Positions 18,294-46,100 of a stretch of DNA of 64,000 bases are shown here, one piece after another (positions within the stretch are counted from its first letter, which is position 1; every line of letters begins with the position of its first letter). The DNA comes from Vermamoeba vermiformis (Eukaryota), in contig JBEWZL010000152.1 of NCBI GenBank assembly GCA_045837725.1, positions 248,001 through 312,000 of the forward strand, given 5' to 3'. The position numbers were made by a program, and so were the translations under genes. The notes below the pieces were generated by a model. It saw only the letters and a program-made list of their open reading frames with translations, made no database searches and was not told the DNA's origin.

Positions 18294-19045
18294 TAAAATA
18301 ATACGAACCAACGTAGTTTAAAATCCGGATTTAGATCCTTGATCTTACCTTTTCTGTGGGCTGTTGCAAGAATGTAGAATCTATCAACGACAATATAAAA
18401 TCCAGCACAAAAATTAGAAGCCTAGTTGTGCGTGGAAATATGACCAGAAAGAGAACAAAAAATTAATCTGAGTTTGGACTAGCTCGCTCTTTGGCAGCTG
18501 CTGCAAAAGGTAGAATCTCGTAAATACTAATAAAATGCGCAACCAGCTATTGGACAGCGATTAACGACCTTTCACAGCCGATCAAAGAGCGTTTCTTGAC
18601 GGCGTCAGATCTGACGGTTACCAAACAATCTGGGCCTTCCTTTATCTCTTGTTATCATTGACGCGATATCGGTGATCGACTCTACCTCTAATTGCACGAT
18701 AATAGAACTGGGGCTTGGCAAACCAGAACACGCAAACACGAGCACTGGTACGCGTTATTTTCAAGCTGGCAAATCGACTATTTATTGGAAAGTTTCATTC
18801 ACTTCATCTTTGGTATTGTTATCAAATAGCTTTCGGTATGCGAAGTCATAAGAAAGGCTTATTTTGGTTGACTTGAAATTTCCGAATTTCGGAGCTTGTA
18901 GCGCTTGCTGCTCCAAATAGGTTTAAAATTATTACGTGGTTCGTAGATTCGATAGGAATTTCCCGCATTCCGGAACGATACTCGTTACGCGAAGTTCGTT
19001 GGAATATAACGTTAACGAAGTAGTCGACTACCACACGTAACGAGC

Positions 19046-20183
19046 ATGTTCGAACAGACCAGATCTAAAGCTAGAATTCTAAGCCAACACTTAGAATTAC
19101 CACCAGAGCAACAAACTGCAGTTGAATCGATTCTTAATGACATCGTCTTTCCTTCATTTGGCCGAGATCACTTTTACCCTCGTTGGCCTTCCTACATCAC
19201 CGACGATTTTTCGCCCATAGAATTCAGCGTATCATTTTCTCCGAAAGGCGCGAAGTTAAGACTTATTTTTGAGCCTCTTGGCAACGAAGATCCAATTGAC
19301 CTGATCAAGCTTCGAGACGCATCCGCGAGCACTTTGGAACTGTTGAGAAAGCGTTGGCCTTATGAACTCAACTTGGTTCAGTTCAACGCGGTCAAGGACT
19401 TGTTCTTCATTGATGACCCGCGTGGCAAATTGGTCTGCTGGTACGGCGTTGACTTCGGCGCAGCACCTATTATCAAGGTCTATTTCAATCCACAAATTCA
19501 AAAGCCCGAAAAGTCCGCACTTAAAGTTGGCGAGGAGTTTATGGAAAAGCTCAACCATGGTCAACATGAAGGTTGGCTAAGACTTCGTGACTACTTGGCG
19601 TCACATCCGGATACCGCCGAGATCGAGGCTTTGAGCACGGATCTGATCGCTCCTGAACGCGCGCGTATCAAGGTATAGTATTGGAATATCACGTAGCCAT
19701 TGAGCATGAGCTTATATGAGCATTTAGGTTTATGTGAGATTCTATGGTGCCACTCTAGCGACCATCGAAGAGGCCTTGTCGGTTACCCACAGATCCGACG
19801 TGAAAGCTTACGTAGAAGAACTCCGAAACACGTTTTGCAAGGGCATGAGAACCTTCTCGGGTGGTGTAGTAACATCGGGCGTTATGATCACTTTCATCTT
19901 CAACCCAACGGATCCGAATCCGCTTTACCGAGTGCACGTGCCTTTACGCCACTACAAATCGGATCTGGTTATTTCTGGTATGGTAACGGACTTCTTGAAT
20001 GAGAACAATATGGAGAGATATGCGACTGGTTATCAGAAGATGATCCAAGAATTCTCTGGGAATACAATGCATCATTCAGGCTTTCAGACTTACGTCTCGC
20101 ACGCACGTCCAACGGCTTCTACTGTTGACTTAACAGTTTATATAGCCCCGCTCTTGTTCACTAAGACCGACCTAACTAGTTAA
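19046..20183 (+). CDS. DMATS/ABBA-family aromatic (indole-type) prenyltransferase, bacterial-like
   Basis: PRWPSYITDDFSPIEFSVSF...LRLIFE, IKVYFNPQ, LSTDL..PERARIK|VY and terminal TVYIAP motifs of the Trp_DMAT family. One intron at 19673-19727 restores KVYVR in frame. Confidence 0.8.
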
Positions 20184-20255
20184 AACGAGTGTATATATTA
20201 TTTGTAGTATAGCCTATATAAAAATTGTGTTGTACCCGATAAATTGTTGCAAAAT

Positions 20256-21190
20256 TTATTTATTTAGTTCTACGGCTGTAAAGCGTAGCCGTGGAAAGCC
20301 AAATAAGGAAATGAATATTCGGCGAACTATCAATACTAACAAGACAATTTTTGATAGGATTGGATCCTGCTTGATCCCCAACGCGTTGCACGTCTTGCTA
20401 TCGAATATGGCTCCCAAAAAGCTTGACACTACGGGACGAGGCACCATTTTGCCTAAAAAATCGATGGAAGTTTGCGTAAGTAACGCAGCATTTGTGGTAA
20501 ACTGGAAATTGTCTCTTTCGAATCGCTGTTTAAATATTTCCATTTTAAGGTACGTTTCCGGAATTTCCCTACAAGAATTATTAATACATATTGCATTATA
20601 CTACTATTTATTGGTCAATACGTACTTTATACCCATCGCCTCGCCAACTCTTTTCCAACATTCGTAAACGGCGTACTTTTCCTCTTCTATTGGCGCTCGA
20701 TAATCGTACTTTTCCATGAATTTAATTGGTTCAACAGCGAATACCGCTAAAGTATATAAATAATACTTGTTATCAACGGCAATGTTCCGATGAATGGATC
20801 TTAGCCGCGCCAAAGTATTTTTCCATTCCTCAGACTCTATATCATTGACCAGGCATTGCCGCATTAGTTTAATAGTATCGGCGTGCCTATAAATACGATT
20901 AGTTCTATTTTTGGAAGTTGGTGTAAAGTCACGTACCGAACTTCAGGTGTTTTTATAAACTTCGCCGTTGCAGCCAGTTTATCAGCTATCTCGGGCACCG
21001 CGAACGTCAGAAATGTCGACATTAATGAGCCACCATCATTTGAGAACGGAAATTCTTTGTAGAAAAGTTGTCGCATAACGTAGAACGGATTCGTTCGGTA
21101 CATTTTTTTGACGTTGTAGATCCGCCATAGTCTAATGATTTGGATGAGGCCAACGTAGATAAATAGGAGTATATATGCTATGTAGTGCAT
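20256..21190 (-). CDS. ER-bound oxygenase MpaB/rubber-oxygenase-like (DUF2236) protein
   Basis: N-terminal TM helix; EFPF, FLTFAVPEIA..LAAT, R|HADT, ARLRSIH, N.YYLYTLAVFAVEP and W.RVGEAMGIK are typical of MpaB-like proteins. Two introns. Confidence 0.85.
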
Positions 21191-21305
21191 CGTGATACGA
21201 ACTGATATAATTCTGAGTCCCTTTTTTTCGTAGATACCATGGAAATTTCGAAATTTCAGGCATAATTCGGTACAATCAATTTTTATCTGTTTAGCAGCGT
21301 ACAAT

Positions 21306-23077
21306 ATGATAGCATCAATACGAACTTTATTTTTACGTATATTTTTGATAGCAGCGTATTGCTTGTACTATTGGATGGTCAAGCCTCGCTTGCCAATGAA
21401 AGAGAAAAATACTAAGCAGATCCGACGAGTTTGCGTTATTGGTGCCGGCTTCAGTGGTATAGCAGCTGCTCGATCACTCATGAAAAATGGAGCAGGCTAC
21501 AGTATTGTTATATATGAAGGTCGAGAAGATTTGGGTGGAATATGGTATCAAGAAAAAGTCAAGCCAAAATTGACCCTGAATGAGCAAGCGGATCTCACAC
21601 GATACATGAGCCCATGCTGGGACACTATGGTGACCAACTCCGGTACTAAGGTATGATTTATTATTCGCATATATAATATTCTAACTATTACTAGTCAACT
21701 TTTTTGTCGGATCAACCGCTGGATCTTGAAGGCAAACTGCCGATCGATGGTGTTTCTCACCAGACCATTAAAAGCTACATTGAAGCGTATGCGAAGAATA
21801 ACGATATATATGACAAGATCCAGTTTAACACTACAGTATCGAACGTCGACAAGGTGAACAACAAGTGGCTCGTGCACATCAACACAGCAGATAGCGCATC
21901 CGTCGAAGAATTTGACGCCATCATTGTCTGCACTGGTACGCTATGGTCTCCGTTAATACCGAAAATTCCTGGAATCGAGAACTTTGAAGGCGATGTTATT
22001 CATACAAGCTTGTACACAAACGCCGAACCATTCAAGAACAAGAATGTTTTGGTTGTTGGATCCGGCACGTCATCAACCGACATTGCCTTAGAAACTAGCT
22101 TCGTTGCAAAGAACGTCTACTACTCGACGCGGAATGGCCGCATATACATCCCGAAGCACTTTTTTGGCGATAAAGTTACCGGCACTGATTTCCTCTGCTT
22201 GTGGTTCCGATTCCGAGGGCTGTTTTGGCGCAAACTGTATCAGTGGACGGGCTTATTCAGAGATTTTACGTATCCTAAGCGAGACATGCTTGATTTGACT
22301 CCGTACGGTGTCCCAGCCCCGGATGTTTCGGGATCCATTGAAAATGGTACGTTCTGTCGAGTCAACTTTGATATGCTAATGTAAATGTTGCAGACCATCT
22401 TTTATCTGTTTGTAAAATCGAGTTTATGCACAGATTGAAGGAGAAGGCAATCACTGCAAAAGGCCGAATTCGACAGGTATCCAAAAGATCGGTTGAATTC
22501 GAGGACGGCTCGTCGATAGAAGTCGATAGTATTATCTTATGCACTGGATTTAGAACGAGTTATCCATTTTTGACGAAATTTATCAACACCGAGAAGTACG
22601 GCACTCCTTATCCTTTGTACGAACAAACGTTTTACTCCAAGGATCCAACACTTTGCTTCGTTGGAGCTCCTCGTTCATCTCTTCATGCGACAGTAGCAGG
22701 TAAATATATAAAGCTATTGCATTTCGGTAGCTAACGAGTTTATCTCAGAAATGCAGGCACGATGGGTAGCAGCTTACTTGAAAGGAGACGTTGGACTTCC
22801 TACGGAGCAAGCCATGCTCAATTGGCAAACAGAGCGCATTAAAAAGTACGGAAAATCAGAAAATGGACGCGCTATTAATAACATTAACATTATCGACTTC
22901 TGCGAGTTCGTGGCTAATCAAACAAACCAGAACTTTTCGTTCATCAGAGACTTTAATATGTTAGAAAAATTATTTTATCGGCCATATTCAGTCCAACGTT
23001 TCAATATTAACGATCAAAAAGGAAAACAATTGTACTTGAGAATTCTCGATTCATTCACCTTCACTATTTGGAAATAA
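21306..23077 (+). CDS. Class B flavin-containing monooxygenase (FMO)
   Basis: GAGFSG (FAD), EGREDLGGIW, FEGDVIHTSLY (FMO fingerprint FxGxxxHxxxY), GSGTSS (NADPH), DSIILCTGF and EMQARWVA. N-terminal hydrophobic helix; three introns. Confidence 0.92.
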
Positions 23078-26020: not shown

Positions 26021-29000
26021 TTATTCAGGCTTGCGCTCGTTATCCTCCTTCTTATCATTTTGATCGTTTTTCTCTTTATCCTCGGACTTGTTGAGCGCAG
26101 AGAATGTAGTTAACGGAGCGTTACTCGACTTGACCAAAGATCTTGTCGCTTGATCCAAAATTGAACGAGCCAAATCCGGTTCCACTTCCAGCCAAGTTAT
26201 TATTCGTATTCGCAGCACTCATCTTATTGTCAGTCAAGCCAAAGTCTGAGCCCAATCGTTTGGTCATTGATGCCTCGCCAAACTGAATGCCTTGGAACTC
26301 GAACTTTGGTTGTTCTGTTTCTGTGTTCTTTGATGCATCTGTTGATGCTGGCACATTGAGCGATGATGGCGTAAATGAGAACGATGAAGGTGCGAAGGAG
26401 TACGATGTAGTTGATGATGATGTGTTGGACGTGCTCGTGTTCTTGGGCTTGACAGGCTTGTCGTCATCGCTGTCACTGTCTTCGTCGTCGCTCTCGTCAG
26501 GGATCGGGTTGCGACTCTTTTTCTGAGGTTTGTTTGGCGTCGATTGCGTTGGCTGTTGGGTAGAAGGAGCACCAAGGGCACTGCCAAAGTTCATTGAGAA
26601 CGGCGAGGCTTTGTTCGTGCTAGTGTTGCCAAAACCAAAGTTGAAAGACGGTGTCGGAGCTTGGGTCTCGGGCTTTGTCTCTTCGGTCTGACCAAACTTA
26701 AATGTCGCTGCACCCATTGCTGACAAATCAAACTTCGGTGCTTCATTCTTTGGCTCATCCTTCTTAGCCTCCGGTTGACCAAAACTTCCGGATCCGAATG
26801 AAGGAGTATTGGTACCGAACGAGGGTGTTCCAAAGCCAAAGCCGAAGCCAGTTGAAGGCGTCTCGGGTTTCTTCTCTTCGGGCTTAGCTTCTTCCTTCGC
26901 CTTCTCTTCGGACTGCTCTGACTCCTTTGGTTTGTCTTCAGGCTTCGTTTGTCCGAACGAGAACGAAGGAGTGTTGCCGAAACCTAAGGCCAAAGCCTGT
27001 TGTTGGCGCAGAGGACTCTTGTTGTTGTGAAGCACCAAAGCCGAACGAAGGAGTGTTGCTAAAGCCCGTGAAGTCAAAACTGAGCTTCTCTTTCGGAGCT
27101 GCGGAAGTGTCCGTGCTCGTGCTTGGGGCAGGGAAGTTGAATGCAAACGGCTTTTGCTCTTCTTTCTTCTCTTCAGGAGCAGGTTTATCCTCAACTTTAA
27201 GTTCAGCTTGAGGCTTCTCTTCACTCTTGGCCTCGTGCTCGAGCTCCAGCGGGCTTATCAGAAATCAGCTTGATCCTCGTGCTTCTCCTCCGTGCTCTCG
27301 GCCTTAGATTCATCAGAGCCTTGTGCTTCGGCCTTTTCCGATTTCTGCTCGGCGTTGTTGTGCTGTTGCTCTTCAGCAGGTTCAGAGGACTGATCGACAT
27401 TGCTCGTGTCAACGTTTTCTTCAGCGGGTTGGACCTCAAGAGCTTTTTCTTCAGGCTTGTCTTGTGCTGGTTCGTTGGACTTGTCCTCATCATTAGACTC
27501 GTCGATTTGTGAAGAGACAATGGATCCAGGCGGTGACATAAGAGTTGAGGCAAACAACGGGTTGTCGTGCTCAGATCCAAAGTGTGATCCACGTTCAACT
27601 TGTTTCCAGCCAGTCGATTCAACAGACATGTTTGAGCCTTCGAGCACTGAGACGCTCAGTTCAGATTGCGACTCGTCTGATCTAACAGAGTCCGTGACGT
27701 CCTTGTTCAATGACTCTTCAACATGACTGTCCGACACGAGTGATGGCACGTCACTGGGAACCGACTCAACAGCACTGCCTTCAACAGCACTCTTTTCATC
27801 AGTCTGTTCGGACTTGTCTTCAACTGCACTGTCAGTCTTAGGCTCTTCAGTTGGCTCTGCTTGCTGATTAGTGTTGTTCGAGTTGCTCGTCTCAGTCTTC
27901 TCTTCAGTGCTGCCTTTGTACTCTTCGGCAGCCGGTTGTTCGACTTGCTTCTCCTCAGGCTGGTTCTTTTTCTTCAGCACACTACGCAAGTCCACACCAG
28001 CTGCCATGCCCGGCAAGGCAAAGCCAAAGCCAAGTTTAGGCTTGGCAGGACTAGGCTCTTGTTCTGTAGTTACCACGTTAGCTATGTCATTTGCAAAGTT
28101 CGTCGATCTTACCTTCAGGCTCGTCTTTAGGCTCTGCTTCATCAACAGAAATTTCAGTTGGTTTGTCTTCAACTTCAGGCTCGGTCTCTTCCTTCTTCTC
28201 AAAAGCAGGAGGATGGCCAGGCTTACGACGATTTTTAGGGCCAGCAGCACGTTGGAACTGAATGTAGAATTGTTAGCTGGTTCAAAAGTGTCACTAAAAT
28301 AAAAGTATCACGTACGTGACTCAAAGTCGCTGTGTGCTTCTCATCAATTGCATCAGTGACGTTATGCTCGCCTTCGTGCGGGTCATCATCACTCGCTGAA
28401 GCAGGGTCTGAATCACTGCCTTCATCGTGACTCGCTTCAACTGTAGTGTTGACGGACTCGGAGACACTGTCATGGACTGACTGGCTTACTGATTGACTCT
28501 CTTGTGACTCGCTAATCACGGAGTCATTAACGCTTGGCTCTTCAACCTTCTCTTTTTCGTCCTTAGCCTCGGGCTGCTCAGACTTTTCTTCCTTATCACC
28601 GTGCTTTGGTTCGTCAGTCTCGTGTTTGTCGTCCTTAATTTCAGGTTCCTCGGGCTTTTCAGCCTTGTCCTCGTGTTTAGTCTCACCAGTCTTGTCCTTG
28701 TTATCATCTTTCTTCTCTTCTTTCTGGTCATCGGACTTTGAGAGCGAAGAGAAGGTCGTCAAAGGCGCAGCACTCACTTGACCAAAGATCTTGTCGCTTG
28801 ATCCGAAGTTGAACGAGCCAAATCCGGTTCCACTTCCAGCCAAGTTGTCATTGTTGTTAGCAGCACTCATCTTATTGTCAGTCAAGCCAAAGTCTGAGCC
28901 CAATCGTTTGGTCATTGATGCCTCGCCAAACTGAATGCCTTGGAACTCGAACTTTGGTTGTTCTGTTTCTGCGTTCTTTGATGCATCTGTTGATGCTGGC

Positions 29001-32000
29001 ACACTGAACGATGATGGTGTAAATGAGAACGATGAAGGTGCGAAGGAGTACGAGGTGGCTGATGATGATGTGTTGGACGTGCTCGTGTTCTTGGGCTTGA
29101 CAGGCTTGTCGTCATCGCTGTCACTGTCTTCGTCATCACTCTCGTCAGGGATGGGCTTCATAGGGTCCTTCAAGTGCTTCGAGGGCTTGTCTTGAGCTGC
29201 CTTGTCTTTCTCCAACAAGCCACCACCGAACGAAAAACCAAAGCTCGGTTGTGGTGCCTCATCGGGTTTCTTCTCTTCCGTCTGACCGAACTTAAACGTC
29301 GCTGCACCCATGGCTGACAAATCAAACTTTGGTGCTTCAGTGCTTTCTTGTGGCTTTTCAGACACTTTCGGCTCTTCAGGCTTCTTTTCCTCGGACTTGG
29401 TCTCAGTAGCAGGATGACCGAACGAGAACGAAGGAGTGGATCCAGTGCCGAACGACGGAGTTCCAAAACCAAAGCCAAAGCCTGTTGACGAACCACTTTC
29501 AGGCTTCTTTTCCTCGGGCTTGTTCTCTTCATGTTTCTTTTCTTCATCAGACTTTGCTTCAACCTTAGTCTCTTCAGCCTTTGTCTCTGGCTTGGTCTCG
29601 GTAGTTTGACCGAATGAGAATGACGGTGTTGTGGCACCAAATGAAGGAGTACCTCCGAATCCAAAGCCTGTTGATGAACCGCTTTCAGGCTTCTTTTCTT
29701 CAGACTTGATTTCAGCAGGCTGGCCGAATGAGAATGAAGGAGTGTTGGTGGTAGAATGAAGGAGTGCCGCCGAAACCAAAACTGAAGCCAGTTGAAGGTA
29801 CTTCAGCCTTCTCTTCCTCGGGCTTGGTTTCACCCTTTGGTTTCTCTTCGACAGTCTTGGAGTCCTTGTCATCAGTCTTGGTATGTTTGTCTTCGGCCTT
29901 TTGTTCGTCAGAAGGCTCTTTATCTTCATCCTCGTGAGAGCTGTCTCCTTCTTCGGAGTCAACTTCCGAATTATCTTCATGAACCGCTTCGTTTGTGTTA
30001 CTCTCTTCAGGCTTGTCCTTTTCAGTTGGTGTCTCTGAGGTAACAAGCTCTTTAGGCTCCTCAGTCTTCGTCTCGGTAGGTTCAGACGTGGCTGATTGGC
30101 CAAATGAGAACGAAGGGGCTGTGGCGCCGAATGACGGAGTTGATCCGAATCCAAAACCAGTTGAGGGAGTCTCAGGCTTTGCCGTTTCGGTCTTTTCTTC
30201 CTTTGGCTTGTCACTTGAAGTGGCACCAAAGTTAAAACCGAAGCTGGGAGTGGCGGTCTTGTCCTCTGCTTTCGCATCCGGCTTGTTGGTTTCTTGCTCG
30301 GTCTTAGCAGGTTGTCCAAACGAGAATGAAGGCGCGGTAGTACCAAATCCGAAGCCAAAGCCGGCAGAAGGCGTAGCATTATCGCCCTTCTTTTCTTCAG
30401 GATTTTGTTCCTTTGGTTTGTCGGATGTGACTATACCAAAGCCACCAAAGACAGGAGCAGCTTCATCCTTCTTTGATTCAGTATTGTCACTCTTAAGAGT
30501 TTGCCCGAATGAGAACGATGGAGCGCCGAAGCCAAATCCAGTTTCGGACTTGTTCTCTTCAGCCTTTGGCTTCTCGCTTGCGGGAACACCAAAATTAAAT
30601 CCAATTGAAGGCTTATCTTCAGATTTCTTCTCTTCAGGCTTTGTTTCAGCGGGCTTAGCCTCCGTAGATTTTCCGCCGAGAGAAAATGCTGGTACGCCGT
30701 TAAACGGACCTTGACCTTCTTCATCATCAGGCTGCTCAGGCTCGAGTTTTGGCGTAAAAGACTCGAAAGAAAGCTTGGGGCTTGCGGCAGGTAATTCAGG
30801 AGTCTTATCCTTGGGCTCACCGGTGAATGAAAATGATCCGAAACCAAATCCAGGTTCTGGTTTCTTTTCTTCGGTCTTATCAAGCTGTCTAGGGCTGAAT
30901 GAGAATACTGGAGCAGGAGACTCCGGTCTCTTTTCCTCCTTTGTCTTGTTGGTCGGAGATCCAAAGCTGATCGAAGGAACCTCCGCCTTCTTTTCTTCCG
31001 TAGGCTTGTCTTGTACACCAAACGAAGGAGTACCAGTTCCAAAGCTAAATTGTGGCACAATTGGATACTTTGGTGGAGCAGAAGTAGGTTGAACTTTGGG
31101 TTTGTTGTCAGGCTTTGTTGGCGTGGATGTGAGAGGCACGTCGTCGCTATCACGTGGCTTAGCCGTAGGAGTAGGGCCTGTAAACCATCCATCAGAGTCA
31201 TCGCTATGATCGCTCTCCTCGCTTTCTTCGCGCTCTTCATCCTCCTCTTCGTGTTCTGAATCCGTCTCCTCGCCGCTCTTTTCCTCGCTCGGATCTTGAT
31301 CTGACCTTTGAGAAGACGATAGCGACATGGTGTCTTTAAAGAGCTCGTTACGCTCAGATCCAAAGTGTGATCCTCGCTCTTCGCGCCAACCAGCAGACTC
31401 GACCGATCGATCGGACTTCATCAGTTCTGACGCACTCATCTCCGATTTGACAGATGAGCCGAGTGTGCTTTGTGCTGGCGATTGATTGTCTGGCTTAGCA
31501 CTGCCAAAATCGAATGATTGTGGAGCGTTACTTGGCTTACTCGCGTTGAAATTGAACGGTGAACTGTTATCTACCAACGTCGCGACCGCGCTAGATTTTT
31601 TCTCTTCCGCGGGCTTTGTAGGAGCAAAAGCAAACGGTGATTGAGTGCTCTTATCTGCAGGCTTATTATCAAAGCCAAAGAAAGGCGTTGATGTTGCAGC
31701 TCCATTGCTCTCAGTCTTCTTATCTTCAGGCTTATTTGCTGATGTCTTTGAAGCCGTAGAGTTGAAATCAAACGAGAAATTTCCAGCGCTCGGCTTGCTC
31801 TCCGCTTGATCTTTCGGCTTGTCAGTGCCGCTAGATGTTGGAGCTGGGCCAAATGAGAACGGAGACGCGGAGGTTGAAGGAGTGCCAAATCCAAATGCAG
31901 GCGTCTTGTCCGTGGACGGGGCACCAAAGCCGAATGCAGACGCCGTTGTACCTCCAGTCTTGTTGTCCGTTGAAGGTGCGCCAAAGCCAAAAGGTGCCGT

Positions 32001-35000
32001 GGTAGTGCTACCAGTCTTGTTGTCCGTTGTAGGAGCACCAAACGTGAACGGTGAAGCACCGCCTGAAGGTGCAGGTGTCGGTGTAACAGCCACTGAAGGA
32101 GCACCAAAATCAAAGGTCTGTGCATTACGCAACACTTCAGCTCGACTAGGCTTAGCAGGACTAGTCTTCGGCTGAACAATGTTTGGAGACACGATCTTTG
32201 TAGGAATTGGTGGGAAGTTTGTCGTTGCTGAAATCAAACTGGCTTTCTTTTGCGGATCCAGATCTGTGTCTGACAACTGACGTTTCTTCTTTTGAGGCTT
32301 TGACTCGTCATTTGAATCTTCGTCTTTATCTTTATAGCTTTCCTTTGGCGGTGACGGGATTGGAATGTCAGTCTTGATGACGGCCGTGGGAACGCTTGGC
32401 TTGGTCGGTGGTGCGTTGACTACTGGCACTGTGGGCGATGTGATAAATTGAATTCGGCTTGGCGTTGGCAATGTAGCTGGCGTTGGCTTTGCAACAGGGG
32501 TGCCAACGTTGAAATTGTTGCCAAACAAGTTAGTCTGTGATGGTGGCTTTGTCTCGGGTGTCGAGATCTGGTCTCCGCCAAAGTCCAACTTTCGTGCGGG
32601 TGGCGGGGACTCGTGCTTCTTGGCCGGCATATTAAACATGCTGGGCGTGCTAGGAGTGCTGGGCGTAACGCTACCCTTTGAGCTCGACAATTGCAAAGCT
32701 TCACTGCGGAGTTTTTTCAAGTCTGACAATTGCTGCTCACGTCGGCGTTTGGCTGAAGCAGTCGGTGTCATGTCCACAGCGGGAGAAATAAACGGCTGAG
32801 TGTCAAAAACAGACGGTGTGCCGGGTGTCATGGGAGTCAAATTAGTGTTCTCCAGTTCCATGGGATCACCACGGAGAGCATGAAGTTCGTTCTTGAGCTG
32901 TTCTAATTTCTTTTGTTCTTCTTCTTTCGTGAACGAAAAATCGCTTGAACGCTTCATGTACTGTTCAGCTCGTTGCAAAAACTCCTTTCTGTGGTTCATT
33001 TCGTTAGCACTGGAAGTCTATTAAGCGGTCATAATGCTTACCTTTGTGATGATTGGAACTGAGACAAAGACAACTCGATCAACAGCAAGTACGAAGAACT
33101 CGTGCCCAGATTGTTGACACAAGCCATGGCTTTAGTGTAATCATTGATTTTCAACGCTCGTTTCGCCAATGTTTCCAAGATATTTCGTGCGTCATCAAGC
33201 ATTGCTTGTTTGTCACTAAGAAGGTAAATATTATTAGAATAAGAACACCATAATGGACTTTAACGAATCTTACCTTTGTACGATGGAATTGTTGACACGT
33301 GTCTCCAAAAGTTGACGCAATTGTTTCACGAGCTTTTTGCCCAAGTTGATCGTATACTTTTCATAAACAGGCGCGAATTCTTTTTGCAGCTCGGTCTCGG
33401 GGTCAATGCAACGACCACTGTAGAGCTTGGTCAAGAAATAAAGTGACGGATTATCACTTGGTCCAATTCTAAAAAGTGTGCGTTAGTCTTACTTTCCATT
33501 ACTATAAAATTGTTCTATTCATACCTAATCTTGTCAATCCAGTGGGCGATGCTAGTAACCGAGGGCAAATCTTCGTGCTTGGTCCACGGCGCGTCTAATT
33601 TCTTTTTGCTAGACAGAATTCTGATCGCCTTTCGACTGTCACGCCAAAGCGGGTCATTGGCGTTGATGGCAGGTGTCAAAAGTGTCACATAGAAATACGT
33701 GATAAAATCGACTACGTGAGGCGAAGACATCTCGCGGTAAATGTTCGTGTCAATTTTGGGCAGATCCAAGCCAAACAAAGTGTTGAAAATTTCTTCAATA
33801 ACGCCGTGTAACTTGTTCTCGTGATAAAATCCACAAACGCGCAACACGCTGTCAATGTTATCAGCGTATTCAGGAGTCGAAGTGAGAATTTGCAAGTCTA
33901 GGCCCTTCGTTGAATTCAACAACCCATCGATGTCAAATGACGCCAATTGTTCTTCGTCCAAATGACCTTTGTACGTGTTGATTAAGCTCCAAAGTTGCTT
34001 GCCAACTTCGCTACGTCGCTGAAGTGTGGACATTTTGCTCTCAGCAGGAAAATCTGTAACAAAACAGAATTAGCCCTGCAAAAGATGACTTTCACGTGAG
34101 AAACGTACTGTTAAAACATTTGTTAAGTCTTGCAAATGCTTCTCGCAATGCAGTCGTTTGTTCTTCGCTGGAAGTGGTTTGACTCGCCTCGCGAATGAAC
34201 GTCGAGGCGTAATGTTGATCGACACGTGCAGCGTATTCCTAATAAGGCAATGAGTTAATAATACTGTAATCGTATAGTAGGTCCCGGGCTTACATCAATA
34301 GCATAGGTCCAATATAGCTCATCATCTTCGTCGAGCTGTGCAGGAGGGTTTTCTCGAGCAGATCTCACCAGATCCTCGAACTCTTTGCACTTAGTCATGC
34401 TTAAAGTATAGAAGCTATTCAACCATTAGCACCATATATATATATATCGTCTATTATACTTACTTTGAATCAATAAATAGTTTGGTGTATCGGTCGGCAA
34501 AGTGCATCCACGCCAACACAATTTCGTGCATTTGAACTGTTTGATCAGAATCATCGTCCATTGCATCATCTATATTATATTATTAGCATCGTATTACTAT
34601 AGTAATATAATATAAGCGTATAATTACCTTGTTGTTTTTCTTTGTGTTTTTGGATCAGTCGCGATAAGAAATGCAAGCCCCATTCCCACCATCGAATATT
34701 TGTTTCAAAATATCGATTGCACTTTTCAAAGTGTTGGAATATACTACCAAGATAATATTATTAATGCTAATAATTATTTTTGAAACGTTTTTTTGAGTGA
34801 CTTACGAAAAATATGACTCGCGTGCTTCGAGGGCCTCCAAGTACTGAATATTAATGCCTAAATGCTTGGGATAATGAACGAGACCTGCTGCGGCCTGTTC
34901 GAACACTTTGCTCGCATCTGCAAATGAAAATTATCAAATTTAACTCGTGTTCGATGTATTCAAAAGTGACGTGTGAGGACTTACTTGACAGCTTCAAAAT

Positions 35001-35909
35001 TTCAATGCGGTTTTGAATAATTTCGGCTTTTTCATCATTATTGGCCTTAGTCTCAGCTCTATATTATAATTAATGCCTATTCATGATAAAAATTACTCAT
35101 CATAAGGCGTACCTGTCAAGCCAAAAGTTGGCCTCGGCAATGTTTTTGACTTGCAAATAGAGCGATGATAATTTGAGCATCAATCTTATTTGCGAGTCGT
35201 CTATGGATAAGGACCTATTTTTAGAAATTTAAACGTCAGAATATTTCCTTATTTGTCGCAACAAAAGACTCATAAAAAGTTGCTACTTTTTTGTGCAAAC
35301 TGAAAAGTGTTTGTTAAATTTACGTATTATCGCATAAATATATAAGTATAATTACCTATTATAAGCTTTAATAGCGTCATTAGGGCAGTTCAGCTCTTCG
35401 TATATTTGTCCGAGCAAATTGTAGCCCTAAAAAAAATACTCTGGTTAAATAATATTGCTCTACTAACACGACGGTAATGCCGTAATGCTAAATATTGCCT
35501 TATTCGTAATTTTAAATATTAAATATTTTTTTTGGCGCGTGAATTACCTTGACGTCCTGTGTTTTGATAGCCAAATACTCCTCTAAATAATTCTTCGCAT
35601 CTGCTTTTTCTCCAGCTTCGTATAATTTAAAAGCAAAAGAGAAATAATAGCTCTTTTTCTGTTGAGAAAGAATAAACGTCAGATCTTGATCTAAATAATT
35701 TAAAAAATGTAGGAGATTTTTTAATTGTATAATAAGGTAGAAAAAACGGTATTTATTGTCCATTTAGCACTTTTATATGTGAATTAAATGGCTAGAAAAA
35801 TTTTAAAAAATTCCATAAGAGAGTGGATTGAGGTTCTTACCTGTGCAGGAGAAGGATTAGAACCCACTAGAGTCTTAATTAATTGCTGTAAGTCTTTGGC
35901 TTTCGACAT
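26021..35909 (-). CDS. Giant FG-repeat nucleoporin with Nup358/RanBP2-like N-terminal TPR/solenoid
   Basis: Spliced N-terminus MSKAKDLQQLIKTLVGSNPSPAQ|KKSYYFSFAFKLYEAGEKADAKNYLEEYLAIKTQDVK|GYNLLGQIYEE...AIKAYN|RSLSIDDSQ..., then a helical region, a short coiled coil and about 2000 aa of FG/FxFG repeats with charged spacers. Several small frameshifts in the 3' part. Confidence 0.8.
26128..26504. repeat. Intragenic duplication copy A (377 bp)
   Basis: Near-identical to 28776-29152; encodes IPDESDDEDSDSDDDKPVKPK...FGSSDKIFGQV. Confidence 0.95.
28776..29152. repeat. Intragenic duplication copy B (377 bp)
   Basis: Near-identical to 26128-26504. Looser similarity extends upstream (APKFDLSAMGAATFKFGQTEE in both). 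Confidence 0.95.
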
Positions 35910-36003
35910 TACGCAATTTTATTCTCTTGTGGTCGTTAAATGAAAAAAATAATGACAAGATCGGGATCGAGAACTCAACAATATTAATTCGCCAAAAAAG
36001 GAT

Positions 36004-36589
36004 ATGAGCACCACACCCCTAACTACTTCAACATCTACTATAGTCCTTACATCGGACAATAACCCCGTAGTCAAGCTGCGGAAGAAGAAATCAGTAAAGT
36101 GGGAAGAAAATGTAATTGACAATGAAAATATGAACAAAAAAAAGTCTAAAAGTACGTATTAATTATTGATATTACGGACAGATATTTTAAGCACGTAATA
36201 ATGCTTGCCAACCAAGTTTCAGATGTACTTTTTTTCTCAATTTAATAGTAATTCGCTGTAATCCCGTCTCTCTCGTGAAATATCAATACTATATGCAATA
36301 ATGAATAATTAATACGGAAATATTCAAATCCAATGGCGGGAAAAAGAATCAGATCTCTAGCAGGATTATTTCATGAACGCCCAATGCGCTTAACACACGT
36401 GTAGCTTCATATTGGCAGGGTATTAATATAATTATACCAGAGTGTTGTATATTCGAGAAACAAAGAGCTTTTGACGAGAGTTCGAGCGACTCGTCGGATT
36501 CAGAAGACGAGCACCACGAGCATTGCGATCACTGCCACCACGATGACGAGAACAACGAACCATTGGACTCTAATAGTAACCAACAATAA
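36004..36589 (+). CDS. PPP1R11: Protein phosphatase 1 inhibitor-3 (PPP1R11/Ypi1)
   Basis: KKKSVKWEENVIDNENMNKKKSK|KCCIFEKQRAFDESSSDS carries the RVxF-type motif and the CCI[YF].K signature. Intron 36152-36440. Absent from the ORF track. Confidence 0.92.
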
Positions 36590-36708
36590 TATAGCAATGT
36601 TATGTACATATTTGAATGTAAAAACTCTTTCGAATTTTTGAAGCACCGGCGCAAACGATAAAATATTTCCTTCGTGAATTTGAACCAGATCTGGTGACCA
36701 CAATAACC

Positions 36709-37953
36709 ATGGAATATCAACCATTAGCAACGTTTGAACACTGGCCTGATTTGCCTTCTGATATTCAGCAAGACATCCTGCTGAAGTTGACGATCAAAGA
36801 TTTGCTTAGCTTCACTTCCTGCAGCAAATCACTGCTCGAAAAAATTAACAACAATAATTTATTATGGCGCACGTTGTATAATCAAAGAGCTGGAGCAAAC
36901 GATTTGAAAGCCAGTAACAATAATTCTGACTGGAAAAGACGCTTTCAAGAAATGTTTGAGAAGGTAAGATGATACTATATATGACCAATATTAGAATATA
37001 TTTTCAGATTTTTCTAATGCTAAAATCGAATTTCTGTTTGGGATCCGAACTTAGAATTCCACTTTTTAGGCACATCTTTGGACCTGCACTATATGCAAGG
37101 GCTTCCCTATCGCTAGCTATGCCTACAAATGCTGGTATTGCGAGGATTTCACGTGCTGCCAGACTTGTTATGAAAAACACGGTCATTTCAAAAATCACGT
37201 GCTGCTCAAGTACTACAATCGATTGGGCGGCAAGAGGATCAATTATAAGGTCGATAATCACGATAAAGACGATATTGTCAAGCCGAAGTGCGCTAAATGT
37301 ACTGTAGACTTGCTATATCCGACGAACAGAAGTGCTACGGATCGGCAGATCTACCTCTGTGACACGTGCTTGAAAGATCCAGAATACGCGAATCAAACTA
37401 TCTATCGTGTAGTAAATGCCGAGGTCGAGCTCGATAAGGACATGGAGGATGCGACAATTAACTGCATCGAGTGTCAGAATCGGTACCAAGTGGCCCCTGG
37501 CGCGGATGATTGGCCGCACCTTTGCTTGACCTGCAGAACGCCCTACAGCACCGGTGAGTTGTGCGCCAAGTGCTACTCGCTGAGTGCCGTTAAGGACAAG
37601 CACCAAGGCCACAACATCGTGCCAAGGCCAGCCCCGAACTACCACGCGTGTTTGTGTGATATTTGCAGATGGAGCATGCGGTATGGCGTGCGCTACAGAT
37701 GCTCGGTAAGTCGATTCGCTCAATACCAAACTACTTACTTGGCTTATGCTCAACTGTCTTATAGGTGTGCTACGACTACGACTTTTGCCAGACTTGTGAA
37801 CCACTTGCCATCGAGCACTTTGAAGGCACGCACCCCATGATGGTCATCCATCAGCAGCCTCAGCGCAGACACGTCCAGTGGTGCCGTGGCGATGAAGAGT
37901 CAGACTTAGGGTCTGACTATGAGTCCATGGGCGAGATCATGTACACGGACTAG
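36709..37953 (+). CDS. F-box protein with ZZ-type zinc fingers
   Basis: F-box WPDLPSDIQQDILLKL...CSK...LLWR. ZZ fingers CTIC...YKCWYCEDFTCCQTCY...H..H and CDIC...GVRYRCS|VCYDYDFCQTCE...H...H. Confidence 0.85.
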
Positions 37954-40117: not shown

Positions 40118-43100
40118 TTAATCTTCCCATTCTTGTTCCCAATCGTCTTCTTTCTCGTTCTTCCAGTCCTCGCCTTCAATGGCCATTCTTCGCGCAACAA
40201 TTTGTTCCATGCCCCAAGTGTTTGACGGCGCAGCTTTAGGCTTCTCGATCGGTCGATCCGACACTTTCTTCAAGTTGAATTTTCCTCCCTTAATAGCGTT
40301 CATAGTCTCAGCTTGAACGTCGATATTAGCAGGCTTCTTTGGAACGTTATCGACCTTCTTAAGACGAGCTAAGCCAGATCCAAGTTCCGCGATCAGATCT
40401 CCTCCAGAGGCACCTTGATCCGATGATCCAGAGTCAGTAACTGTCACCTTAGGAGCCTTTTCGGTCTTGAGCATAGGAGGAGGTGGTGGCGGGGCAGAAG
40501 GACTAACATTATCGTTAGTATACATTATCCTATGAAAAGTTTTTGCGTGTCAAAGTACGTACCCTCCGATAGGTGGTGGTGGCGGAGCAACTGGTGCGGG
40601 AGCATCAACGGCCGCTGATTAACGTTCATTAGTACCTCGATGATAGATTGATTGAATAAATGTCAAAACTTACGCTCTTCATTGTACTGCGCACTTGACA
40701 CTTCGACAGCACGAGGCGTGAGTGGCACTGGGTCATCACCATTGGCAGTGGCCACGAGTGCCATCAAGAACTTCTCAACTGACACGTGTACGTTATCGAC
40801 GTAAGGCTCAAGAATATCCAACACGCCCAAACCCTAAAGAAGTGCATATTAGACACGTGTCAAGTGTCACTTTACATGCGCTAAAACATACGTCAATGAA
40901 GTACTTCAAGTCTTTGCAAGCGTTCAAGCAAGTGTCAACGCGAGCACGAATTCGGTTGACAAGGATTTCAGGGCTAATGCGTTGGTTTTGGAACTCTTCA
41001 ATGTTGACAGATTGAGGGGTTTCGCTTAACTCGACGAACTTCAAGGACTACACAACGACCGTTAGTATTCCAATTCAGTTACGTTTATATCTCATTTAAT
41101 ACTTACCTCGGGGTCACCAATGACTGACAATTGATAGTCCAAGTAGACATCGGGGTAGAAAGTTGAAGGCGTGATAACATATGGGTACGGGCTAGGATCA
41201 AAGTCAACGACGCAACTCACTACAAAGCAATTAGATTAGCATGAATCCATTGATAATATGATGCCTTCGTGCTACTCACCGTCACGAGACTGTTCGAAGT
41301 TGGCCTTGGCAATCAAGTCTGCAGAGTCAGTAGTCTTGGGCAAGCCGTTCTCATCACTGTTTGTGACGTAGAAACCAACAGCTGCGTATTCGTCGGGATT
41401 GGCAACTTCAACGTTAGGCGATTGCACGAGTACAATGCACAGCCTACGCAAGAGTTAGTTTACGAATGACACTTTGACACGATCAATGTTCAACACGTAC
41501 TTGACGGGTTGTTTAACGAGCAAGAAATAACGAGGGTTAGTCAACCAGCGCTCGTGATCGTTGATGCAACCACCAGCTGATTTAGCGTCCCATTTGCCCT
41601 ATGAACAAAGGTGTTAGCAATCGCGGCACGTGACGGTACCTTTAAGATAATGAGGTCCTTACCAATTTAGTCAAGAAGGCTTGCTCGATAGCGTTCATCT
41701 TAACAGCGGGGGTCTCGCTGTAGACAGTCACAGTGAACGGTGACTCTTGGCCAGGAGCAAATGTTGAAGTGACAATGTTGTAGTCACCGGGCTCAGCGTC
41801 AAAATTGACGAGAACTTCGCTGCCCTTTCTGAAAGCACCCTTCTTGATGATGTCTTTAGGCTCCATCTCAACGGTACGACCTCCATCAACTACAAAAAAT
41901 CAAAAGTTAGCGTCAAGTTGCTGTTGGACACCGCCGAACTCGTCACTTACAAGGTGCTTTGACGAGGTAGAAACCAATGCTGAGATCGTTCTTCTCCTTG
42001 TCTTTGTCCTTCTTGTCCTTGTCCTTTGATTTCTCCTTGACAGGCACGCTCACTGACAACCAAGCGTTGCCGCGTTCTCTAAATTGCAAGCTGAATTGCG
42101 GGTTGTTACGCCATGTGGAATGGTTCAAACAGCCACCAGCAGTGATGCCTTTCCACTCTCCCTTAGCCTCAACAGTAGTGAAGATATCGGGCAATGGCGT
42201 TAATGTCACGACTTCAGTGAAATCTCCGGGGAACTTGGAGAAGATCGAGAAGCTGAAGTTAGCTTCTTGGCCTGGCTTAAATGTGCAAGGCACGACGATA
42301 TAACCGTTCTCGTTAGGCTCAAAGTGTTGAGTCAAGATCACTATAAAGATAACAGGTTAATACGTAGCAATGTTAAAAAGATCCGGATCCAATCTGATCT
42401 ACTCTACAGTACGTACTGTCACGAATGGTAGCAAATCCAGCCTTAGCGACAATGTCATCCTTAGTCACAGTCAATCTGCGCTTGCCTGAGCCTTTAACGA
42501 TGTAAAAACCGATCGATTGGAACTTGCCACCAGCGCCTTCAGATTGACGCAGACGGAAGTCGAGATCAATGGGTTGATTGACAGTCATCAAGAACTGCGG
42601 GTTATTGCGCCACGTGAAAGGATGGTTCAAACAGCCTCCTGCTGTCTTGCCCTTCCATTCACCTTGCACGGAGAGTTCCTTAGCATTGGTCAACTCGTCC
42701 ATTTGGATGTCCTTAGTGCTCCACAAGTACAAAGTGAAACTCGATTCCCTGTGAAATAAGGGAATTAATGACTATAGCTAAGGGATGATAGGCGATATAA
42801 TGATATTTTCAAGGTTGCAAGCTGGATCCAAGTTAATGAAACTTACTTGGCAGGATCGAAAGTACACGGGACGACAACATATTTGCCAGGAGTTAATTCG
42901 ATTTCAGCACCGCCTATATTGAATGTTAAGTCAGTACTTTACCGTTCGTTCTAACTGAATATCTCCATTAAATTTGCCAAATTTAGCTTTTTCAATTGAA
43001 AGATATTGTAAATGCTTGAAAGTTTCAGAAAAGGCGTCGGTATTAAACTTACAATCGGTAGGACTAGCGAACTTTCCCTTAAGAATAATGTCGTCATTCT

Positions 43101-46100
43101 TGACTGTAATCAACTTCTGCGTTGCGCCTTCAGTTTTAATGATGTAGAACGAGATCGGATCGAAATCTTCTTCCTCTTCTTGCAAAAGTAAGGCATCGAG
43201 CTTAGTCTTGTCCTGTACTGTAAGCAAGTATTGAGGATTGTTTAAGAACGTTGCGTAGTTCTTGCATCCACCGGCAGTTTCTTCTTTCCATTCACCCTGG
43301 ATTGCAAGTTACGCTGTTAATTAATGCACATAGATGTGTATTAAAAATTATTACTGAAATCCCGTATCAATTCAATTGAATTGTGAGTCACAAACGTAAA
43401 TCGGTGGAGATCCGAACATTTCTAAAATTAGCGAGATCCAACCAGATTTTTTTAAAAAGTGCGCCAAATTATTTGTGCACAATTAATTAAGCAATAAGAT
43501 TTGCTACTTGCCTTAATAACATGAGAGTTCCATTCGTGTTCTTTGCCGTTTCTTTGAAGCGTGACATCGCTGCTCGCGACCACACTCAAAGTGAAACCTT
43601 TTTCCTCACCAGGAGTGAACGTGCACGGTAATATGACGTAAGGGGCTTTAGTAGGTGCCAACGAGATTTCAAGGGTGGCTATAGAAATACATAAATTAAT
43701 TATCAAACTGTTTGTGTACTGTCGCGGATGTGACACTTGCCTTTCGCCGTGTTCGTGAACGATGCTTTGGCTTCAATGAAATCCTCGGGATCCTCTCCGA
43801 GATATACAACTTGCTTGTCTAAACAACAATGATTTAGTTTCGCTTCACTGAAGGCGGATTTGAATCCCGCCAGACAGATTCAGAAACTTACTTGCGTGCT
43901 TCGGCTTAATAACGTAGAAGCCAATGGAAGAGAAGTTGTTCTTGCCTTCTTGCGTCAAAGTAATGACGATTTTAGTCTGTTGCTTGACGGTCAAGAAGTA
44001 TTGGGGATTGTTGCGCCACGACTGGTGATTGAAGCAGCCACCAGCACTCTTGCCCTTCCATTGACCTTGCATAACGATGTCTGAGCCAGTAAAAGGACCA
44101 ACATCTTCAACGAAAGCATCACCGCCTTCTCTGCGAGGAGTCACCAAGGAAGGACGAGGAGATTTGGCACCAGATGCGGCGAGTTGGGACTTGAGCGATT
44201 CAACTAGCTTAGTGAGCTCATCGACTTGTTGTTGTGATGCCGCGTATTTGGCGGTCAATTCTTCGACTTTCTTAGTATCTGCAGCTGAGGATTCGGATCT
44301 GTCTCTTCGCGAGGATCTTTTCCTTCTTATCGCGGCTAGATTTGTCTTTATCTATGCATAACCGATTTAAGTACTTCTGACTTAAATAAAATCAAGCAAT
44401 ATACTTCTCTCAAAGAGAATTGAAAAATAATTCAGATCGCGTGTACTGGCCTTCAAACGATCTCTAATCCAATATGTATTTCCGCAATTAAATGACTTAC
44501 GCTTTTCCTTCTTCTCTGGGTCCTTGGAAGAAGCTGCAGGCTCGTCCTTGGGCTTATCAGTGGCTGCAGTAGCGGCGTACGCATCCAAGCTGATCTTAGG
44601 GCGGGTTGACGGACGAGGAGGCAGGTCAGGCTTAGCAGCAGGAGCTGTTACCTCGGGCTTGACTTCTTCTTTAGGCTCAGGTTCATCGGCTAAGCAATTT
44701 AAAATAAGGTTAAGAAGGTTAGCGAAGTAAGATCCACGTCGATCAAAAAATTAATTGTACTTGTCCGACCTAATAAGGCCAAATGAGATATGTGGTTGTA
44801 AATCGATGGAAGGATGTATAATATGTATATTACTTACCTCGACCAGGAACACGGATCTTCTTGTTGGTGTAAACGTTGAACTTGAACTTAGCCTCATTAG
44901 CAGGCTCAAAAGTGCATCCAATAATCGAGTAGTGACCAGGCTCCAAGTCACCGCGAACATTAGATTCACTAGTATCCTCGAATTGAGACTTCAAGATGAT
45001 ATTCTTTGACAAGATCTTGGTCACGTCATTCGCATCTGGTTCAAAAAGAGAGTCGATGAGCCATTAATATTCAATCGTAATAATATATATGTTTAATAAC
45101 GATATTTAGCTTATGAGCGCCACAAATTAGCCAACCGAATGAAAAGATTTTGAAATGAATTATGAAGCGACAAAATTTCCATGTAGCACGTAAATGGTTA
45201 ATACAAAGGTTGAAATATTATATCATAGTATATCGTACCTTCAGCCTTCAATACATAAATACCGAGCTGATTGAAGTCTTCCTTTTGAGTTTGAGACAGC
45301 ACGAAAATAGCGTGAGTTGGTTCTAAGACTTCGATATGGAATTGAGGGTTGTACTTGAACGTAGAATGATTTTTGCAGCCTCCTGCACGAGCACCGGCCC
45401 ATTCGCCCTATTATAATTAATTATTAGAAGGCACGATGGTCGGGAGATGAAAATATTTGTTACGGAATATCAGGTATTTTATCGTAAGCATTTAAAAATA
45501 TTATGAAGCGCCGTATAATACTATTTTCTTGAAATTGCAATGTAATTCACAATGATAAGCGTAATTTTATGCAGAGTCTAGGTAGTTACGAAGCTGTTAA
45601 ATTCGTATAGTGATACTTACCTCGAATTCGGTATCTCTATAATCTTTTTTAGCATCCAAATCCGTAAGAGTACCAGCAGTAGTGGTCAATTTGAAATTGC
45701 CACTCGTTTTGGGATCGAAAATGCAAGGGACGACGTTATAAAGGCCAGCCTCCAAATCAAAAGCAGAAGATACTATTAAAAAGGATATTGAGCAAATGTT
45801 CGCGATTAAAAGAGTTAACTGACATGATCTGGCTCAAAATTTAAATTTCAAATATTATTTTTAATATTTTACCTGTCTTCATGCTCTTGAAACCACTCTT
45901 GCCAACTTGAGCATCCTTCAAAATACTTCGTTTGCCGTCTACAAAAAATTAATCAATAATTATGGACCCAAAATATGAAAAGATTACGTCAAGATTTTTG
46001 ATATCAACCAACAAATATCTGCAGTGGAAATTAGGCAATAAATTAAATTATAATAATACGATTATTATTTTGCTAATTATAAATACAAACCTTCGGATTT

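Follow-up and report, generated by a model that had tools for sequence, protein, structure and literature searches.

The window (the whole 64,000-nucleotide stretch of DNA that was analysed) contains a large gene on the minus strand, which runs from 35909 to approximately 26021 and has at least 16 exons in our spliced model. Its start codon (35909-35907) is the first ATG past an in-frame stop, and its lower end lies well past the bound of 33000 given in a preliminary description of this DNA. Thirteen introns lie between 35840 and 32989, all with GT..AG ends and most with a CTAAY-like branch site. The features of the gene are given below in the direction of transcription; exons 5 to 10 and exon 12 come from the spliced model and its comparison with L003, a metagenome relative.

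35841..35909, minus strand: exon 1, 23 codons from the ATG at 35909, donor GTAAGA, 88% identical to L003 1991-2059
35548..35658, minus strand: exon 2, 37 codons, first TPR-like helix pair, with an IFIT1 TPR match
35356..35426, minus strand: exon 3, GYNLLGQIYEELNCPNDAIKAYN, TPR motif (Pfam TPR_1)
35113..35214, minus strand: exon 4, SLSIDDSQIRLMLKLSSLYLQVKNIAEANFWLD, the most conserved of all exons (96% DNA identity to L003)
34985..35058, minus strand: exon 5
34806..34917, minus strand: exon 6
34628..34743, minus strand: exon 7
34464..34569, minus strand: exon 8
34294..34399, minus strand: exon 9
34109..34238, minus strand: exon 10
33525..34053, minus strand: exon 11, 175 whole codons, the biggest piece of the helical head
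33274..33468, minus strand: exon 12
33042..33215, minus strand: exon 13, in which the helical head ends (residue ~632)
28316..32988, minus strand: exon 14, heptad helix, linker and main FxFG region, with a frame break near 29755-29745
32853..32987, minus strand: conserved 45-residue stretch just past the head, 78% identical to L003
32915-32871, minus strand: heptad-like helix QKKLEQLKNELHALR within the 45-residue stretch, approximately three heptads, L-x2-L-x3-L-x2-L
31353..31391, minus strand: linear motif GWREERGSHFGSE, copy 1, conserved and also in L003
28113..28257, minus strand: exon 15, small and charged, with a CTAAC-bearing intron on either side (58 and 49 nt)
26021..28063, minus strand: last exon(s), second acidic and FG super-repeat, stop codon 26023-26021
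27570..27611, minus strand: linear motif copy 2, GWKQVERGSHFGSE, also in L002, another relative
26046..26508, minus strand: 465-bp direct repeat, which recurs at 28695-29155 (90.8% identical), with the acidic block DESDDEDSDSDDD in each copy

Intron 13 was set to 53 nt (33041-32989) because the resulting junction, ...SSQRKEFLQRAEQ, agrees with the one in L003, ...SSQRKDFLHRAEQ; this match ruled out a 32-nt version, which was dropped. All peptides quoted in the preliminary description are present in the spliced model, i.e., SKAKDLQQLIKTLVGSNPSPAQ|KKSYYFSF...EEYL, GYNLLGQIYE, AIKAYNR|SLSIDDSQIRLMLKLSSL, ANFWLDR and QKKLEQLKNELHALR. From three RNA runs that carry the same species label, 6, 22 and 29 reads matched a stretch of 10,601 bases, most of them only in part and at 95–99% likeness, and no splice joint inside the gene had three or more reads. 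Their source is apparently a diverged strain, which would put the splicing and the frame breaks beyond their reach.

L003 keeps all 13 N-terminal introns, and its 14 exon pieces agree in length with those of the window over 2184 nt, without an indel. Exons are 75–96% identical, whereas introns are 34–74% identical and differ in length. The overall dN/dS is 0.075, and over residues 1-142 it is 0.042. Because exon lengths are kept, exons exceed introns in identity and dN/dS is low, the pattern goes beyond chance: the gene is real and under purifying selection. Its head and FG tail are joined inside exon 14, and this one-exon junction is kept in both L002 and L003, so the fusion is not a gene-modelling artefact.

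Relatives of the gene are few. Exon 11 has counterparts in P0001 (88%) and L001-L003 (77%), and a search of 1,835,955,588 representative proteins returned only copies of the exon itself as relatives, none of them annotated. One of the two matches at E<=0.001 was a spurious zinc-finger repeat protein and was rejected. A word-based search for longer proteins containing exon 11 gave 589 candidates, none at E<=0.001. Protein-atlas look-alikes of P0001 were discarded as noise (the top one, a PEP-carboxylase cluster, reached 0.91, and recognition was low).

The head is approximately 632 residues long and begins with TPR-like repeats. Exon 3 matches Pfam TPR_1 at E = 2e-4 over profile positions 4-25 of 34, with a score of 21.5 bits that falls under the curated 27.8 bits because the query has just 23 residues; it also matches TPR_2 and TPR_8, the three E-values spanning 2e-4 to 0.011. 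The sole matches of exon 2 (37 codons) among solved structures are IFIT1 TPR repeats (E = 0.015). Judged by these matches, which were obtained with short queries and hold nothing specific to Nup358, the N-terminal region is TPR-like. They span single exons of 23–37 residues, and the other ~500 residues of the head are not covered by them. A structure model of exon 11 built from four sequences has 12 helices and no strand, at low confidence (pLDDT 42.8). The heptad helix then follows 20–45 residues past the head, and its leucines are all kept in L003 except for one L to V change.

FxFG repeats make up the tail, which exceeds 2,000 residues. In the 1723-residue model there are 38 FG dipeptides, 20 of which are FxFG, and 37 of the 38 lie past residue 632. 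Downstream frames add approximately 40 more, with ORF pieces in 26021..28063 carrying 2, 3 and 17. S, P, T, K and E are abundant in the tail, which has a net charge of -44, and its dense FxFG, FGFG and SFSFG motifs, separated by charged spacers, are kept in L002 and L003. One polypeptide combines a long FG-dense disordered domain with a folded anchor, the pairing by which FG nucleoporins are recognised. The helical region and FG repeats of the preliminary description were found in that order, with a short heptad helix between them.

A Pfam search (E<=0.1-1) of exon 14, six further FG-region ORFs of the window and the 896-residue L003 ORF matched no family at all. Exon 14 and the FG-region ORFs showed no Ran-binding domain, RanBP2-type zinc finger or C-terminal cyclophilin domain, in keeping with what had been noted from the letters alone, and they also showed no SUMO E3 region (IR1-M-IR2). 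No Pfam nucleoporin family matched any part searched. The next gene downstream encodes an EF-hand protein.

The window copy has four frame breaks, near 29755, 27261, 26985 and 26125, and these make its full-length product uncertain. At the place matching the ~29755 break, L002 has a single open frame of 1285 residues. A candidate 93-nt GT..AG intron could bridge this break in the window; unlike the other introns, it is not AT-rich and has no branch motif, and L002 does without it. Reading through the breaks would give a protein of approximately 2,900 residues. Were translation to end after residue 1723, the product would keep the head, the helix and 37 FG dipeptides.

Two other genes of the window bear on its source. 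For an exon of TSC2, one of the markers proposed in the preliminary description, the top named relative is the dictyostelid Synstelium (56%), with fungi at 53% or less and Thecamonas at 46%. For an NDH2 exon, the named relatives are Physarum (58%), Arcella (52%) and Dictyostelium purpureum (42%). The NDH2 tree (28 rows, no animal row) puts the window outside the fungal clade with support of 92/93 and leaves it ungrouped with the named amoebozoans. Animals are absent from the 21 and 116 matches listed, in a search that sees only proteins sharing exact words with the query. The best matches of both genes thus indicate that the source is probably a non-animal, amoebozoan eukaryote, and the earlier impression of an apparently non-animal organism was borne out. 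Besides the NDH2 gene itself, the window holds a gene for a Trp_DMAT-type prenyltransferase; neither is known to be common among animals. These two genes, together with the amoebozoan best matches and the lack of animals among the matches listed, make it extremely improbable that the organism is an animal and the gene a divergent, truncated animal Nup358, even though short introns and approximately 40% G+C are compatible with small-genome animals.

We consider it likely that this gene of a probably amoebozoan, non-animal organism encodes a giant FG nucleoporin with a helical TPR-like head, a heptad helix and an FxFG tail. In our reading it is a new FG nucleoporin, restricted to its lineage, whose layout resembles that of Nup358. 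We infer that the head would dock the protein on the nuclear pore scaffold, that the heptad helix may bundle several copies, and that transport receptors would bind the FG tail at the pore periphery. The N-terminal third of Nup358 in animals (head, oligomerisation element and FG) would share such a division of labour. FG-rich disordered proteins exist outside pores too, so one can also picture a TPR scaffold whose long, low-complexity FG-rich tail acts elsewhere (e.g., in cytoplasmic condensates), and the lack of a Pfam nucleoporin match agrees with this. However, dense FxFG-type motifs with charged spacers are a hallmark of FG nucleoporin domains, and their retention in both L002 and L003 makes a role away from the pore very unlikely.

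Within the nucleoporin reading, the main question is whether the head is related to that of Nup358. The preliminary description held that the N-terminus aligns closely with human RanBP2. We searched solved-structure sequences with nine queries: exons 1, 2, 4, 6, 8, 11, 12 and 13, and a four-sequence profile of exon 11. With these single exons (23–175 residues) and the profile, none of the 23 distinct solved-structure sequences at E<=10 was a NUP358/RanBP2 chain, so the proposed alignment was not reproduced by any exon query. The repeat-family matches of the head were only generic (IFIT1 TPR, Pfam TPR_1, TPR_2 and TPR_8), which is the outcome that had been named in advance as counting against kinship. 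However, the solved-structure test is weak because the queries were short single exons, and kinship of the head with Nup358 is therefore not refuted.

A true homologue of the Nup358/RanBP2 N-terminal domain would be a special case of the giant FG nucleoporin proposed above and is compatible with it; we regard it as quite possible, at somewhat less than an even chance. A TPR head is not known from any other family of FG nucleoporins. The order of parts matches that published for NUP358 (TPR start, helical head, oligomerisation element, disordered FG), and the collinear match to the human N-terminus proposed in the preliminary description serves as a lead only. Against homology, no NUP358 chain appeared at E<=10 even with the exons of 175, 64 and 57 residues and the profile, exon 11 lacks relatives beyond its own copies among the representative proteins, and every other defining Nup358 domain is missing. 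Nup358 is the largest pore component of animals, where its head clamps the double cytoplasmic ring, and this job of clamping two rings may not apply here. The resemblance could instead be convergent, with a TPR/helical-repeat anchor joined independently to FG repeats in a lineage-specific amoebozoan nucleoporin. The generic nature of the TPR matches and the lack of detected relatives outside close kin fit this, and peripheral nucleoporins are known from the literature to vary between lineages. The exon-sized queries were too short for a fair test, though, and the shared order of parts (TPR first, helix just past the head, FG next) exceeds a shared repeat type; we regard convergence as possible but less likely than not.

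If the head is homologous, a core Nup358 (TPR-solenoid head, bundling/oligomerisation helix and FG tail) may predate animals and go back at least to the common ancestor of Amoebozoa and Opisthokonta, a proposal that we make tentatively and would not back at even chances. Such a core would have survived in this amoebozoan lineage and been lost, or have diverged beyond recognition, in fungi and dictyostelids, and the Ran-binding, zinc-finger, SUMO-ligase and cyclophilin modules would have been gained later, on the animal stem. Nup358 had been introduced as metazoan-specific. Published accounts do call it metazoan- or vertebrate-specific. A 2010 table adds the choanoflagellate Monosiga, with Nup358 in neither of the two amoebozoans screened. 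At the level of literature listings, we found no report of Nup358 in Amoebozoa, which is not proof of absence from print.

If the head is related to Nup358, the module arose hundreds of millions of years earlier, and both the role of the head before the Ran-binding modules and the link between ring number and head presence become testable. If it is unrelated, the gene would still be of interest as an example of convergent design, and as one for a giant, strongly conserved FG nucleoporin with a TPR anchor that has gone unannotated, in a lineage whose pores are barely charted.

Several known systems share parts of this design. Generic TPR proteins (IFIT1; Pfam TPR_1/TPR_2/TPR_8) provide the sole statistically visible matches of the N-terminal exons, but they have no FG tail. 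The charged FxFG domains of the Nsp1/Nup1/Nup2 type are alike in having FxFG spaced by K/E/S/T-rich linkers; those nucleoporins have other anchors and are much smaller proteins. Nup214/Nup159, a conserved cytoplasmic FG nucleoporin, is likewise large and peripheral. It too has a folded anchor at the N-terminus, as well as coiled-coil segments and a long FG tail. This anchor, however, is a beta-propeller, whereas the head here is helical with a TPR motif.

Nup358/RanBP2 is the system closest in layout, and it also shows clear differences. Human Nup358 has four Ran-binding domains, whereas the protein described here is without a Ran-binding domain, RanBP2 zinc finger, IR1-M-IR2 ligase region or cyclophilin domain in the parts searched. 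Its FG domain is much longer and belongs to the charged FxFG type, its host is probably amoebozoan, and its exon queries have no sequence match to NUP358 chains among the solved structures listed. The likenesses concern the order and scale of the parts. According to a 2021 preprint, human NUP358 has a TPR start, approximately 750 helical head residues (1-752) and then disordered FG-bearing regions, with an oligomerisation element at 802-832, approximately 50 residues past the head. The preprint describes that head as S-shaped and made of three helical solenoids: a TPR/HEAT N-solenoid, a six-helix wedge and a C-solenoid. The protein encoded here would likewise start with TPR-like repeats, continue through a long helical head (~632 residues, compared with 1-752 in human), carry a short heptad helix soon past it, and end in long, disordered, FG-bearing sequence at giant overall size.

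The minus-strand gene model starts from an ATG at 35909; 13 short exons, of 23 to 175 codons each, precede a single very long one. The introns all begin with GT and end with AG, and most have a CTAAC/CTAAT-like branch site 10-25 nt 5' of the acceptor. Intron 13 is set at 53 nt (33041-32989), with a TGCTAAC branch site and the same protein junction as in a relative; a 32-nt version fits less well and was dropped. All peptides quoted in the preliminary description, which had seen a Nup358/RanBP2-like N-terminus here, are present in the spliced model. The gene observed there is confirmed and also extended, as it runs to 26023-26021. Three RNA runs with the same species label gave only 6, 22 and 29 reads on the gene, their source apparently being a diverged strain. 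Directly upstream, on the opposite strand, are a Ypi1-type protein phosphatase-1 inhibitor gene and an F-box gene (36000-36972, plus strand), where a spliced junction behind 36151 is seen in RNA reads.

The head (residues 1 to ~632, exons 1-13) is leucine-rich and contains a single FG. Pfam assigns TPR_1/2/8 to exon 3 (E = 2e-4 to 0.011) with scores below the curated cut-off, as expected from 23 residues, and exon 2 resembles IFIT1 in its TPR repeats (E = 0.015). The structure model of exon 11, which is of low confidence, consists of helices only.

Exon 11 is the largest head exon (175 residues), and against 1.84 billion representative proteins it gave 2 matches at E up to 0.001. One is a 183-residue open frame on a relative's genomic DNA (P0001, 88% identical); the other, a zinc-finger repeat protein, was rejected because its similarity comes from repetition alone. 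Among metagenome contigs, three loci at 77% identity were confirmed from 196 pattern matches, and one of them (L003) spans the entire head. On L003 each of the 14 exon pieces keeps its exact length, with 0 insertions/deletions in 2184 nt. Identity between the window and L003 is 75-96% in exons versus 34-74% in introns, whose lengths differ, with an overall dN/dS of 0.075 that falls to 0.042 within residues 1-142. The kept exon lengths, the exon and intron identities and the low dN/dS together argue that the nucleoporin gene is real and under strong constraint, strongest at the N-terminus.

The FG tail begins within the same exon as a heptad helix. In a 1723-residue model there are 37 FG past residue 632 (20 of them FxFG), with spacers rich in S, P, T, K and E, and ~40 additional FG lie in frames farther downstream. 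The tail is made of two super-repeats, each with a conserved motif and an acidic block, and a 465-bp stretch is repeated within it at 90.8% identity. The motif, of the form GW-x(1-3)-ERG-x(1-2)-FGSE, occurs twice in the disordered tail and is kept in L003 and a second metagenome locus (L002), and some partner may dock there. The features downstream of the head are:

32915-32871, minus strand: heptad helix QKKLEQLKNELHALR, ~three heptads in a conserved stretch, 20 to 45 residues past the head
31391-31353 and 27611-27570, minus strand: tail motif GW..ERGSHFGSE, one per super-repeat
29146-29108 and 26498-26460, minus strand: acidic block DESDDEDSDSDDD, one per super-repeat
26023-26021, minus strand: stop codon and end of the nucleoporin gene, with an EF-hand gene following closely

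Four frame breaks interrupt the FG region in the window copy (near 29755, 27261, 26985 and 26125, minus strand); they may be true mutations or errors made in assembling repetitive DNA. L002 has one open frame of 1285 residues that spans the place of the first break (~29755) and continues past two introns into the second super-repeat, which indicates that the full gene is one unit of ~2,900 codons. In DNA run X2, a single contig links 26469 to 29885 and leaves out 3415 bases, its shorter side being only 22 letters long; this could reflect a collapse or a copy-number variation of the FG super-repeat.

The host was placed using two other genes of the window, TSC2 and NDH2. The TSC2 Rap-GAP exon matched 21 proteins, led by metagenome proteins (57%), then the dictyostelid Synstelium polycarpum (56%), fungi (up to 53%) and the apusomonad Thecamonas (46%). 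The NDH2 exon matched 116, with an 88%-identical metatranscriptome protein on top; the best named were Physarum polycephalum (58%), Arcella intermedia (52%) and Dictyostelium purpureum (42%), with fungi next. An NDH2 tree was built from the window and 27 of the 116 matches, leaving out the other 89: named and unnamed protists near the top, five metagenome rows, one plant-labelled row and 15 fungi hand-picked for spread. All fungi form one clade (92/93) with the window outside, whose position among the remaining rows the tree does not settle. Animals are absent from both match lists (TSC2 21, NDH2 116), which come from word-based searches that can miss proteins; NDH2 is lacking in many animals. 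Together, the matches and the tree point to a host outside both animals and fungi, most likely an amoebozoan, so the non-animal origin proposed earlier is supported.

The plant-labelled row (P0091, Quercus suber) nests in ascomycete fungi beside Elsinoe (99/95) and is probably a fungal contaminant. P0032 and its cluster are NDH2 proteins, full-length and spliced, that share 88% identity with the window exon and lie on environmental-sample contigs of 1.0-1.8 kb that look like metatranscriptome contigs; close relatives would thus be active in nature, with spliced transcripts in public data. Two long contigs (485,654 and 690,972 bases) each hold copies of exons from NDH2 as well as from the nucleoporin head.

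Elsewhere in the window, a complete, solitary 5S rRNA gene (2386-2504, plus strand; Rfam RF00001, 104.7 bits) lies among the exons of the TSC2-like gene (pieces at 160-6604). One gene region at 41645-45407 (minus strand) has at least seven open-frame pieces, each matching calpain domain III, in a tandem array of this domain. Three adjacent genes at 19016-23077 resemble a small secondary-metabolite cluster; in an amoebozoan such a cluster would be unusual, a hint of gene transfer. Its putative members are:

19016-20183, plus strand: Trp_DMAT-type aromatic prenyltransferase
20604-20942, minus strand: mpaB/rubber-oxygenase-like gene
21234-23077, plus strand: flavin monooxygenase

Judged by its sequence, the gene product is probably a giant FG nucleoporin whose helical anchor opens with TPRs; it is unannotated, restricted to its lineage and strongly conserved, and this stands whichever way kinship with Nup358 falls. 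Nup358 is called metazoan-specific in passages of a 2021 preprint and vertebrate-specific in those of other papers. The table of a 2010 survey marks it in 12 animals and the choanoflagellate Monosiga and leaves it unmarked in Entamoeba and Dictyostelium. Among the titles and passages covered, we found no report of Nup358 in Amoebozoa.

NUP358 head structures are reported in preprints. Sequences of solved structures were searched with exons 1, 2, 4, 6, 8, 11, 12 and 13 singly and with a four-sequence profile of exon 11; NUP358, whose head chains are presumed included, was none of the 23 distinct matches at E up to 10. Short-exon nulls say little here, with the head cut into 13 exons and queried piecewise. 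The 175-, 64- and 57-residue exons found no NUP358, which suggests that in its middle and end parts the head is, in sequence, at best very distant from vertebrate NUP358. We take the alignment to the human N-terminus proposed in the preliminary description as a lead, not a result. A TPR head is not known from any other family of FG nucleoporins. Kinship of the two heads is a serious possibility to which we give somewhat under an even chance.

In human NUP358, as described in the 2021 preprint, four TPRs open a 752-residue helical head of unique fold, and an oligomerisation element (802-832) follows ~50 residues past the head, before long flexible regions. The candidate has the same order of parts (TPR start, helical head, helix, flexible region), which counts in favour of kinship. 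It differs, however, in having no Ran-related module: a Pfam search of the gene's frames found no family, and none of Ran-binding, RanBP2 zinc-finger, IR1-M or cyclophilin, in line with the preliminary description, which saw no RanBD, RanBP2 zinc fingers or cyclophilin domain. On paper, the candidate would do the work of Nup358's core of head, helix and FG.
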